Source of the DNA: Escherichia coli | GTDB lineage: Bacteria; Pseudomonadota; Gammaproteobacteria; Enterobacterales; Enterobacteriaceae | Assembly: GCF_041886205.1 (NCBI RefSeq) | Contig: NZ_CP169029.1 | Reading direction: 5' to 3' (one strand) | Length of the DNA stretch: 64,000 nucleotides | In this document: piece after piece, positions 3,049 to 5,682 of the stretch | How positions within the stretch are numbered: position 1 is the stretch's first letter | Layout: the number at the start of each line of letters is the position of its first letter | Made by a program: the position numbers and the translations under genes | The notes under the pieces: model-generated | What the model was told of the DNA's origin: nothing | The model's input: the letters and a program-made list of their open reading frames with translations, nothing else | Databases searched by the model: none

Positions 3049-4461
3049 TTACAGGACGTGAACAGATGCGGTGTTAGTAGTGCCGCTCGGTACCAGTGCA
3101 CCAGAAACCATAACTACAACGTCACCTTTGTGTGCCAGACCGCTCTGCAGAGCCAGTTCTTTACCCAGACGGTAGAAATCATCAGTAGAAGTGATCTCTT
3201 TAACCAGCTGCGGCACAACGCCTTTGCTCAGTACCAACTGATGAGCCGTTTTTTCGTTGGTGGTCAGTGCCAGGATGGTGGCATCCGGGAAGTATTTACG
3301 TACTGCGCGAGCAGATTTACCGCCCTGAGTAGCAACCACGATCAGCGGAGCATCCAGTTTTTCAGCAGTTTCAACGGCACCACGGCATACCGCTTCGGTA
3401 ATGCGCAGTTTACGGTTGTCATTGTTGAACTCGAGACGGCTGTTCATCACGCGGTCGGTACGTTCGCAGATGGTCGCCATGATAGAAACCGCTTCCAGCG
3501 GGTATTTACCTTTTGCGGATTCACCAGACAGCATCACTGCGTCAGTACCGTCGAGGATGGCGTTTGCAACGTCACCGGCTTCTGCGCGAGTCGGGCGTGG
3601 GTTTTTGATCATGGAATCCAGCATCTGGGTCGCAGTGATAACGACTTTACGTGCACGGATACATTTTTCGATCATCATCTTCTGGGCGAAGATAACTTCT
3701 TCTACCGGGATTTCTACACCCAGGTCGCCACGCGCAACCATGATGCCGTCAGAGGCTTCGAGGATTTCGTCGAAGTTGTTGAGGCCTTCCTGGTTTTCGA
3801 TTTTGGAGATGATGTGGATGTTTTCGCCGCCGTGCGCTTTCAGGTGCTCACGGATTTCGATAACGTCAGAACGCTTACGAATAAAGGAAGCAGCAACAAA
3901 GTCTACGCCTTGTTCGCAACCAAAGATCAGGTCCTGTTTGTCTTTTTCAGCCAGTGCTGGCAGAGCAATGGAAACGCCAGGCAGGTTCACACCTTTGTTT
4001 TCGCCCAGGTCACCGTTGTTCAGCACTTTACAGATAACTTTGTTACCTTCAATGGCGGTAACTTCCATACCGATCAGACCATCGTCAACCAGTACGGTGT
4101 TGCCAACAGACAGGTCAGTAGTGAAACCTTCATACGTTACCGCAACCATTTCGCTGTTGCCGATAACAGATTTATCAGTGGTGAAAGTAAAGGTCTGACC
4201 AGCTTTCAGAGAAACGTCGTTACCGCCTTCCAGTTTCATGGTGCGGATTTCCGGACCTTTGGTATCAAGCAGGATAGCGGCGGTTTTACCAGTTTTGCTC
4301 ATCACGTTGCGCAGATTCTGAATGCGCTGACCGTGTTCTGCATAGTCACCATGAGAGAAGTTCAGACGCATAACGTTCATGCCAGCGTCCAGCATTTTAG
4401 CTAACATCTCTTCAGATTCGGTTTTCGGTCCGATGGTGCAAACAATTTTGGTCTTTTTCAT
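3049..4461 (-). CDS. pykF: Pyruvate kinase I (FBP-activated)
   Basis: ORF 3049..4677 trimmed to the internal start [19 protein letters not shown], giving the expected 470 aa; the 72 in-frame codons upstream are treated as leader. Confidence 0.95.
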
Positions 4462-5017
4462 GACAGTCTTAGTCTTTAAGTTGAGAAGGATGGGAGAAAC
4501 TTGCTTTCTGGGCGCACTGCCGGAAAGCGAATCCGGTATTACGAAAGTGGTGGTGCCTCGCTCTAAGGATAGGTGACATCGAAAAAGCGTGCAGAGGAAT
4601 GTGTGCTTGTGTCTCAGCCCAACGTGAGTGCCTGTTTTTGAGTCGTTGAGTTCTACAGTCCAAAGTGCTGAAACCATTCAAGAGTCAATTGGCGCGCATT
4701 ATACGCTGAAATTAATCCAAAAGGAAAACAAAAACAGCGTTTCAAAAAATATACAACTTGTTAGACAATAAATTGTTATCAAAGATTTAACGTTCCAGGG
4801 AAAAGGTTACGCAAAAACTTCACTGTTTGCGCAACGTCTGGTGCCGAAGTTGTCAGTGTGAGGATAAGTGAAAGTTCATCCGGTGTATAAATATATCATC
4901 GCTCAATTGCTACAGTTAAAATAATTTATCGCGTTATTTGTCTGATTTTGTTTGATTTTTGTTTAATTGGTTAGATTGATATATGCTGATAGTTGGCATG
5001 ATAAATAGGTATAAAGA

Positions 5018-5227
5018 ATGGGAAATCGGACAAAAGAGGATGAACTGTACCGAGAAATGTGCAGAGTTGTCGGTAAAGTTGTGCTGGAAATGCGCGATCT
5101 GGGGCAGGAACCAAAGCATATTGTTATCGCAGGCGTATTACGTACAGCATTAGCCAATAAACGCATTCAGCGCAGTGAGCTGGAAAAGCAGGCGATGGAA
5201 ACCGTCATTAACGCACTGGTAAAATGA
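5018..5227 (+). CDS. fumD: Small protein FumD (YdhZ), putative fumarase D
   Basis: 69-aa ORF MGNRTKEDELYREMCRVVGKVVLEMRDLGQEPKH.. at the position between pykF and ydhY expected from conserved synteny. Confidence 0.75.
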   Translation: MGNRTKEDELYREMCRVVGKVVLEMRDLGQEPKHIVIAGVLRTALANKRIQRSELEKQAMETVINALVK

Positions 5228-5230
5228 CCA

Positions 5231-5265
5231 TTCAGGATGAGGCGGTAAGCTTCATCCTGATATTC
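5231..5265 (+). terminator. Candidate terminator after fumD
   Basis: 9-bp stem tcaggatga/tcatcctga with 11-nt loop immediately after the fumD stop; only a weak T-rich tail. Confidence 0.35.
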
Positions 5266-5467
5266 TTGCTTCAGTTGCGGTCCAGTTAATCATTCTAAAT
5301 AACAACTGCTGAAATTATACGAATTGCGGTATGTATTTTAATTTATAACGATAATATTATTTTTATTTTCTGCAATGAACGTCACAAATAATTGTCGCTT
5401 AAGTTAAATTTATTTTAAATGATAATAAATATCAGTTCACTTATAATTTCTTGCTTTGTAATTTTAA

Positions 5468-5481
5468 TTGATAACGATCAA
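5468..5481 (+). promoter_or_regulatory. FNR-type binding site, perfect consensus TTGAT-N4-ATCAA, upstream of ydhY
   Basis: Sequence ttgataacgatcaa read directly; sits in the AT-rich fumD-ydhY intergenic region about 200 bp upstream of the ydhY start; the ydhY operon is reported to be FNR-activated. Confidence 0.6.
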
Positions 5482-5682
5482 TGTTAAGGGTTCAGAATAA
5501 TTACATTATTTTTTCTCCTAACCATAAAGGATTAGTTTATCGGCGTTAAATCTTTTCTCATACACTATCGGGTTAGGGAAAATATCTGGTGTTGGGGACA
5601 GAGTCAGCAGCGTATTAGTTGAATGCTTAATATCAGGCTGCTGAATTGTCAGCACTGTGTTTGCGAAGAGGATGCGAAATAA

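Follow-up and report, generated by a model that had tools for sequence, protein, structure and literature searches.

Organization of the pykF-fumD intergenic region

The window analysed here is a single stretch of 64,000 nucleotides (64 kb) whose source is the chromosome of Escherichia coli: a 681-bp query around the interval examined here matches 5425 of 5426 complete E. coli genomes with at least 98.5% identity, and the genes that RefSeq annotates under this query are pykF, ynhH and fumD. The coding sequences of pykF and fumD diverge from an interval of 556 bp (4462..5017), in good agreement with the separation of about 550 bp given in the preliminary description; already known and annotated, it serves as the control region of this divergent gene pair in E. 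coli. Its features, together with the flanking ones, are the following (window positions, strand, description).

3049..4461, minus: pykF coding sequence, 470 amino acids (list of open reading frames and RefSeq annotation)
4462..4677, minus: in-frame upstream extension of pykF, 72 codons, with an ATG at 4677 inside the Cra box (list of open reading frames; coincidental)
4469..4663, minus: ynhH, a putative leader ORF, 64 codons long, whose TTG start codon lies at +30 from the distal transcription start (RefSeq 'protein YnhH')
4503..4528, minus: conserved candidate RNA hairpin GCUUUCCGGCAGUGCGCCCAGAAAGC (inverted repeat I10; present in the centroid fold)
4563..4577, minus: motif GTCACCTATCCTTAG, a sigma-S/sigma-70-like -10 element (TATCCT, 4571..4566) of the proximal pykF promoter (conservation and a start site from the literature)
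4563..4618, minus: leader block of about 56 nt with strong conservation of the nucleotide sequence itself, which extends to the third codon positions of ynhH
4667..4682, no strand assigned: predicted Cra (FruR) operator GCTGAAACCATTCAAG, which matches the FruR consensus exactly and occupies +11..+26 relative to the distal start
4692, minus: distal pykF transcription start, predicted in the literature (PMC2759082, Table 1)
4698..4703, minus: perfect -10 hexamer TATAAT, followed by the GC-rich discriminator GCGCGCC (sequence)
4719..4744, minus: putative upstream promoter element TGAAACGCTGTTTTTGTTTTCCTTTT, at -52..-28, containing the previously flagged TGAAACGCTG (4735..4744) (conservation)
4806..4835, no strand assigned: inverted repeat GTTACGCAAA / TTTGCGCAAC with a 10-nt spacer (inverted repeat I9)
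4937..4968, plus: T-rich tandem decamers TTTGTCTGAT TTTGTTTGAT TTTTGTTTAAT, 50-81 nt upstream of the fumD ATG (TRF)
5018..5227, plus: fumD (ydhZ) coding sequence, 69 amino acids (RefSeq; NCBIfam NF007630, fumarate hydratase FumD, E = 1.4e-45; Pfam DUF2767)
5232..5260, plus: intrinsic terminator of fumD (terminator scan and a mapped RNA 3' end)

With 39.2% GC against 50.7% for the window, the interval is AT-rich as originally described, but the AT-richness is confined to its distal part: the fumD side (4701..5017) has a GC content of 32.2% and the pykF-proximal part (4462..4700) one of 48.5%. All five sequence observations of the preliminary description, namely the gap, its AT-richness, the repeats, TGAAACGCTG and the in-frame extension of pykF, are indeed present. 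Its interpretation was right with regard to Cra control and to the coincidental nature of the extension; the Cra motif, however, had been misplaced, and ynhH, a second promoter-like motif and a hairpin had been overlooked. Taken as a whole, the region is probably best explained as a divergent control region composed of a Cra operator, a distal pykF promoter, the ynhH leader, a second pykF promoter and a fumD side. The comparisons reported below draw on the pykF loci of 80 species of Enterobacterales.

The Cra operator and the predicted distal pykF promoter

A scan of the 64 kb with the FruR consensus RSTGAAWCSNTHHW returned two exact matches, against 0.54 expected, one of them being the 14-mer GCTGAAACCATTCA at 4667..4680. 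The 16-mer GCTGAAACCATTCAAG agrees at 13 of 16 positions with the palindromic Cra consensus gcTGAAtCGaTTCAgc, the motif as published (PMC5888115), and only three sites in the 64 kb score that high. The motif scan proposed in the preliminary description has thus found a site above threshold, and the Cra control of pykF supposed there is borne out; the operator, though, is at 4667..4682, about 60 bp away from the motif that had been flagged. Judged from its sequence, the functional Cra operator would be the near-palindrome GCTGAAACCATTCAAG at these positions.

The element is maintained throughout the order. The motif TGAA(T/A)GG(T/A)TTCAGC is kept in 78 of 80 Enterobacterales pykF loci, from Escherichia through Proteus, Yersinia and Xenorhabdus, and lies 213-281 nt upstream of the ATG. 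Compared with the Cra consensus, the central CG is replaced by CC/GG in pykF (TGAAACCATTCA), a variant that is itself conserved in 78 species; otherwise nothing about the site is unusual.

In regard to the promoter on which this operator would act, Table 1 of PMC2759082 lists a FruR-controlled pykFP with the sequence TTTCAGCGTATAATGCGCGC, ending in TATAATGCGCGC, whose start is 231 nt from the ATG. This distal promoter is termed 'predicted' by the authors and was undetected by 5'RACE in glucose-grown JM101 (PMC2759082). The same paper, which on Cra action cites Bledig 1996 and RegulonDB, gives a Cra site 197 nt upstream of the ATG, compared with 206-221 nt for the palindrome described here.

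In E. coli, the operator lies 17 nt downstream of the perfect TATAAT (4703..4698). Practically all 78 species have a TATAAT or TATACT ahead of the Cra TGAA, and the spacing between the two is fixed at 16-18 nt. Relative to the literature-predicted start at -231, the operator occupies +11..+26, a position compatible with repression. The arrangement has much in common with other glycolytic-gene Cra/FruR operators, namely a near-palindromic TGAAWC/GWTTCA that matches the published consensus and is placed at +11..+26 of a predicted sigma-70 promoter, the gene being a glycolytic one for which repression by Cra is known, and it is also the placement from which LacI/GalR-family repressors act just downstream of the start, as at lac O1.

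The distal promoter combines a perfect, invariant -10 with a poor -35. A generic promoter consensus scan left it unreported because of this weak -35, and the two hits that the scan did give, against 2.0 expected, are at chance level. We propose that the pykF-proximal ~231 nt would be the leader of a transcript initiated near 4692 at a distal sigma-70 promoter made up of the perfect -10, the GC-rich discriminator, the weak -35 and a conserved T-rich upstream element. A LacI-family repressor bound at 4667..4682 would then block initiation or promoter escape. It is well established that sugar-derived fructose phosphates release Cra and that pykF expression increases as a result.

The upstream element previously assigned to Cra

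The element that had been noted as resembling half of a Cra operator, TGAAACGCTG, is present on the minus strand at 4735..4744 as reported. Its assignment to Cra is not supported, since its best register agrees with the consensus at 8 of 16 positions, which is the level of chance: approximately 7,000 of the 128,000 16-mers of the window (~5%) score at least 8/16. The left Cra half (TGAAAC-G) is perfect, while the right one matches at 1 of 6 positions, and the count of the heptamer TGAAACG is unremarkable (17 in the window against 12.6 expected).

Nevertheless, part of the element is conserved, and it might be thought to mediate or assist pykF control as a Cra half-site, for example as an auxiliary operator that cooperates with the main one. 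In addition to the perfect left half, 34 of the 36 Enterobacteriaceae sequences that were aligned keep TGAAAC at -52..-47, as part of TTTGAAAC-N3-GTTTyyATTTTCCTTTT, and in many genera a second TGAAWC is found about 21 bp further upstream. The pattern of conservation is, however, unlike that of a Cra palindrome, because in relatives the base that follows TGAAAC is G or A, the next three nucleotides are variable and the right half reads GTTTyy instead of WTTCA. Moreover, whereas TGAAAC-N3-GTTTyyATTTTCC is conserved in Enterobacteriaceae and its T-rich part across the order, the TGAAAC part is absent beyond this family, as in Serratia, Yersinia, Erwinia and Pantoea, genera that keep both the T-rich part and the true operator; position -52, finally, is not a repressing one. 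We consider a role as a Cra half-site, an auxiliary one included, improbable.

These alignments indicate that TGAAACGCTG at -52..-43 is not a canonical Cra site. We read it instead as the upstream part, next to the -35, of a promoter with a weak -35, and alternatively it could be the site of another factor.

ynhH as a position-conserved leader ORF

Nearly the whole of the predicted distal leader is occupied in E. coli by ynhH, which lies in a different frame from the pykF extension and whose TAA stop (4471..4469) precedes the pykF ATG by 7 nt. The protein matches Pfam PF23642 from end to end (E = 6.5e-50; 167.6 bits, with a cut-off of 27). Annotated YnhH homologues were found in Escherichia, Citrobacter and Salmonella, and the annotated members of this YnhH-like family encountered here do not go beyond these three genera. 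An ORF at the same position extends further than the family does, to Serratia, Yersinia, Erwinia, Pantoea, Dickeya and Hafnia, where the encoded peptides are unrelated. A literature search of partial coverage returned neither experimental evidence for ynhH translation nor a primary source for the name.

When the leader is read in each species from the first TTG, ATG or GTG at +27..+40, an ORF of 60-85 codons spans it entirely in 71 of 79 sequences and ends between -18 and +11 of the pykF ATG. In 52 of these the stop lies 5-20 nt before the pykF ATG, in 15 species a TGA overlaps it (ATGA), and in the remaining 4 the ORF stops 11 nt inside pykF; these stops are near enough to the pykF start for coupling. 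When each genus is represented by a single sequence, the ORF is found in 32 of 35 genera against 1.85 expected from dinucleotide-preserving shuffles, a contrast that is overstated by some margin as the species are related. A stop-free sense frame crosses the leader in 69 of 79 sequences and an antisense one in 3 of 79; the remaining two sense frames usually contain 1-7 stops. Leader length varies from 223 to 291 nt, and where it changes by other than a multiple of three the ORF ends at another stop. The alternative stops are built into the invariant sequence AACTTAAAGACTAAGACTGTCATGA, and three stop positions are used.

In the comparison of E. coli, Salmonella and Citrobacter, dN/dS amounts to 0.28-0.47 in the ynhH frame and to 0.74-1.68 in the other frames, with pykF at 0.01-0.05; this frame specificity suggests that selection 'sees' the ynhH frame. 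As far as these sequences allow us to judge, the positional conservation of the leader ORF across Enterobacterales would be a modest new lead.

A proximal promoter, a conserved block and a hairpin within the leader

The leader contains a second promoter-like motif, GTCACCTATCCTTAG, in 65 of 78 species, situated 113-168 nt (mostly 113-134) from the pykF ATG. In Dickeya and Pectobacterium its counterpart is CTATACTTA, the -10 consensus of sigma-S. Elements of the sigma-S type have the -10 consensus KCTATACTTAA, and the likeness of the pykF motif to them comprises CCTATCCTTAG in E. coli, the Dickeya and Pectobacterium form and a mapped sigma-38-dependent start 7 nt downstream.

That start, 97 nt from the ATG, was established by 5'RACE and in vitro transcription (PMC2759082), and its distance of 7 nt is counted from TATCCT. 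The mapped pykF 5' ends are at -97, -80 and -34 (PMC2759082). In Salmonella, dRNA-seq has revealed alternative ppGpp-dependent and ppGpp-independent pykF starts (PMC3293720), which agrees with the existence of two promoters, the distal one having a GC-rich discriminator and the proximal one being of the sigma-S type. A second promoter with a sigma-S-like -10 (TATCCT) would give rise to a shorter leader that bypasses both Cra and ynhH.

Unlike in a plain sigma-S-type -10, the flanking GTCAC and about 40 nt upstream show a stronger conservation than a promoter by itself would need. Across the conserved block of about 56 nt (4563..4618), identity to the consensus is 0.82-0.95 per 10-nt bin in an alignment of 36 Enterobacteriaceae. 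The third codon positions within the ynhH core block are invariant, and the sequence ATCCATCACAACTT is read as IHHNL in some genera and as HPSQL in others. The use of different reading frames for the same leader motifs, together with the invariant third positions of the core, points toward a constraint that acts largely on the DNA or RNA and not on the peptide.

Closer to pykF, the hairpin at 4503..4528 shows compensatory changes of the types CG/UA and GC/CG, and with a value of 0.412 its covariation score exceeds the 0.213 obtained in shuffles (0 of 500 reach the observed value), and shifted-register controls give at most 0.18. The reported 5' end at -34, a possible processing product according to the authors (PMC2759082), lies just downstream of this hairpin. 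As a whole, the leader does not have the properties of a structured cis-regulatory RNA: an Rfam scan of 4000..5600 at E <= 1 gave nothing, folding of the whole leader showed no excess stability over shuffles (z = +0.47 and +1.43), and there is one local covarying hairpin. A larger hairpin around GTCACCTATCC was considered and, on visual inspection, rejected, because the variation of its 3' arm finds no compensation in the 5' arm, which is invariant.

A model for the role of the leader ORF in pykF expression

The pykF start itself is devoid of a Shine-Dalgarno (SD) sequence. The anti-SD duplex upstream of the ATG at 4461 reaches -1.3 kcal/mol, compared with a mean of -2.4 for random 20-mers, and the start is SD-less in all 78 species tested (mean -0.56 kcal/mol). 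The ynhH TTG likewise has no SD sequence, a point that counts against the scheme set out here. We propose that the leader would be translated as ynhH across its full length, up to 7 nt before the SD-less pykF ATG, and that ynhH may act mainly in cis: ribosomes on the leader would prevent it from closing and would bring ribosomes to the pykF start or reposition them there, by translational coupling. A cis-acting translated leader coupled to pykF initiation appears to be the most economical reading of these data.

Stated in full, ynhH would be a chiefly cis-acting, position-conserved ORF whose translation from the long, Cra-controlled transcript sets either the translation of the SD-less pykF mRNA or its protection from Rho and RNase, so that the synthesis of pyruvate kinase I is tied to ribosome traffic on the leader, while the sigma-S-type promoter bypasses the upstream ORF. 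We advance this scheme tentatively, as a possible and not yet a probable one. Coupling, if it occurs, is not obligatory, because the eight species that have no leader ORF (Proteus, Photorhabdus, Budvicia and one Xenorhabdus) are still SD-less at pykF, with no SD compensation detected there, and because transcripts from the proximal promoter do not include the ynhH start. Rho-dependent attenuation of the C-rich leader is only a variant of this idea, and it stays so since one Term-seq supplement (PMC7815308) lists no premature 3' ends in the pykF leader.

We presume a likeness to the leader ORFs of tnaC-tnaA, mgtL-mgtA, speFL-speF and toiL-topAI and to ATGA-type translational coupling. As in those translated leader ORFs or in coupled cistrons, the ynhH stop is within coupling distance of the main start; 15 species show the ATGA overlap of coupled cistrons, the pykF start is SD-less and the leader is C-rich and unstructured. 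Several differences from tnaC-type leaders must nonetheless be pointed out. With its 60-85 codons, the ORF at the ynhH position greatly exceeds them in length and runs through the whole of the leader, it has no conserved sensory peptide motif or obvious stalling sequence, and no attenuator or terminator follows it, nor are there premature 3' ends in the one Term-seq data set.

The conservation of the ORF could also be explained by a function of the protein itself, YnhH being a small protein that acts in trans and has no bearing on pykF. In favour of this explanation, YnhH is annotated as a protein with its own Pfam family, comparisons of Escherichia, Salmonella and Citrobacter give a dN/dS of about 0.3 for its frame, and a core of 21 residues is conserved. 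This core, however, coincides with the block conserved at the nucleotide level, third codon positions included, and the nucleotide motifs are read in differing frames across genera (IHHNL against HPSQL). In slightly more distant genera dN/dS of the ynhH frame rises to 0.65-0.84; AlphaFold2 predicts a YnhH structure with little confidence (pLDDT 54, pTM 0.20); and the end of the leader ORF follows the pykF ATG through frame changes by means of the three stop positions. The peptide appears to be weakly constrained, and we regard a function in trans as unlikely.

An untranslated origin of the open frame, as a mere by-product of a C-rich, G-poor leader that carries conserved DNA or RNA motifs, is in our view less likely still. 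The composition of the leader (~31% C, ~19% G) does lower the frequency of stop codons, with an open frame arising in about 20% of composition-matched shuffles; in E. coli two of the three sense frames are open, and the ynhH TTG is not preceded by an SD. On the other hand, the excess across genera (32 of 35 against 1.85) was obtained with shuffles that preserve dinucleotides and require a start codon, the other two sense frames usually hold stops, the antisense is open in only 3 of 79 species, and it is in the ynhH frame alone that synonymous changes are in excess.

Upstream of its start, the pykF frame contains no stop over 72 codons, counted from the ATG at 4677, and the preliminary description had rightly thought this probably coincidental: E. 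coli and E. albertii are alone in having an extension of 72 codons. The open stretch measures 1-67 codons, mostly 22 or 2, in 77 other species and 137 codons in a single Pantoea. The notion that this ATG, at +16 of the distal transcript, is used in E. coli to make a PykF isoform with a 72-residue N-terminal extension is hardly credible, given that the ATG lacks an SD sequence (+0.7 kcal/mol), that Pfam and NCBIfam searches of the extension gave no match and that dN/dS in its frame is at least 1 in 10 of 14 comparisons (range 0.64-2.11).

Glycolytic flux is controlled to a major extent at pykF, a gene that metabolic engineering has often targeted and that has been repeatedly mutated in experimental evolution. 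Descriptions of its regulation usually confine themselves to the action of Cra at a single promoter. The present analysis fixes the position of the operator and indicates that the long pykF leader is under strong selection across a whole bacterial order; besides a further conserved motif of promoter type and a hairpin with covariation, this leader holds an ORF that looks translated and reaches as far as an SD-less start codon. Should this ORF control the translation of pykF, reporters and engineered promoters from which the leader has been trimmed would misreport the regulation or lose it. Most of the content of the region is already known or annotated, and what is added here is the exact placement of the operator and, as a moderately interesting lead, the behaviour of the annotated ynhH as a position-conserved leader ORF that ends at the SD-less pykF start throughout Enterobacterales.

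The fumD side

The AT-rich distal part of the region, of about 300 bp, would hold the putative fumD promoter, and it contains a short T-rich repeat that is confined to Escherichia. The tandem repeats noted at the outset are real but small, with three copies of TTTGTTTGAT(T) at a period of 10-11 and a TRF score of 41-43. Their spacing of about one helical turn and their location 50-81 nt upstream of the fumD ATG are those that could be expected if the decamers at 4937..4968 were binding sites of a regulator or nucleoid protein controlling fumD, and when the AT-rich part was shuffled 2000 times with its composition preserved, no more than 8 of the shuffles were as self-similar. The TRF score is nonetheless low, and conservation argues against such sites: the decamers are present in E. 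albertii and in none of the 8 other loci (six genera) in which fumD adjoins pykF, where a different palindromic arrangement takes their place. A regulatory role of the repeat is possible, if not likely in the form of such binding sites; most likely, it is a product of replication slippage in DNA upstream of a promoter.

Further toward pykF, the inverted repeat at 4806..4835 is kept in E. albertii in a more symmetric form. A Fur-box search of the window gave 0 matches with up to 3 mismatches. The direct repeats D1/D5 (4861..4884 against 4523..4576) were examined as a duplication of leader motifs and discarded, given their reversed order and the chance-level occurrence of short two-copy families. 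Downstream of fumD, an RNA 3' end has been mapped at K-12 coordinate 1754895 (PMC7815308, supplement), which corresponds approximately to position 5264 of the window, in the vicinity of the clean intrinsic terminator (5232..5260) at which fumD ends.

Distal pykF promoter

The distal pykF promoter carries a GC-rich stretch between its -10 hexamer and the start site:
4692..4697, minus strand, GC-rich discriminator GCGCGC, directly after the perfect TATAAT

GC-rich discriminators are typical for promoters inhibited by ppGpp, and a discriminator of the GCGCGC type is kept at the distal pykF promoter in many genera. This element is in line with the ppGpp-dependent alternative pykF starts reported for Salmonella.

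On the upstream side of this promoter, in many Enterobacteriaceae, E. coli not among them, the conserved TGAAAC is preceded by TGTGAAACTGCACAGA (pykF loci L011, L014, L015, L019, L024 and L030, among others). TGTGAAACTGCACAGA lies at about -62..-77 relative to the distal pykF start, represents a second TGAAWC at a distance of ~21 bp from the conserved TGAAAC and, additionally, looks like a putative CRP site (TGTGA-N6-ACAGA).

Farther upstream, an inverted repeat was found:
4806..4835, GTTACGCAAA / TTTGCGCAAC with a 10-nt spacer

Its E. albertii counterpart is closer to perfect (TGCGCAAA-N10-TTTGCGCA), and the segment around it is without counterpart in other genera.

Repeated motif in the pykF leader

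The leader holds two copies of the motif YCNCCNATCCTT, 79 nt apart and each kept across genera:
4486..4497, minus strand, TCTCCCATCCTT
4565..4576, minus strand, TCACCTATCCTT

We read the upstream copy as a -10 element. This copy is also similar to the 3' end of the 16S rRNA (CACCUCCUUA), plus two extra bases, and it could alternatively act at the RNA level.

A second pyruvate kinase gene is present in NZ_CP142917.1, a plasmid-sized record of 73.8 kb from E. coli B19374 (database matches H12 and H17). Its leader shares 86-88% identity with the window, and the annotation places a 'hypothetical protein' under this leader; presumably, this copy is a pykF-ynhH unit gained from another enterobacterium.

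Second FruR-consensus match

The FruR consensus RSTGAAWCSNTHHW is matched exactly for a second time within the pykF coding sequence:
4120..4133, plus strand, AGTGAAACCTTCAT

It spans codons Y110-T114, with the distal start ~566 nt upstream. Since at least two matches were reached in 12 of 100 shuffles, this match may be a chance occurrence.

Surroundings of fumD

The window is highly AT-rich (19-26% GC) at 5300..5500, between the fumD terminator and ydhY. A search for the Fur consensus in the E. coli window, allowing up to 3 mismatches, gave 0 matches. Ahead of fumD in Klebsiella, Kluyvera, Pseudocitrobacter and Enterobacter sp. 10-1 (L007, L010, L003, L013, L020), ATCAATAATGAnTTGATTnnTAATG is found ~20-70 nt before the ATG and, judged by eye, resembles a Fur box.
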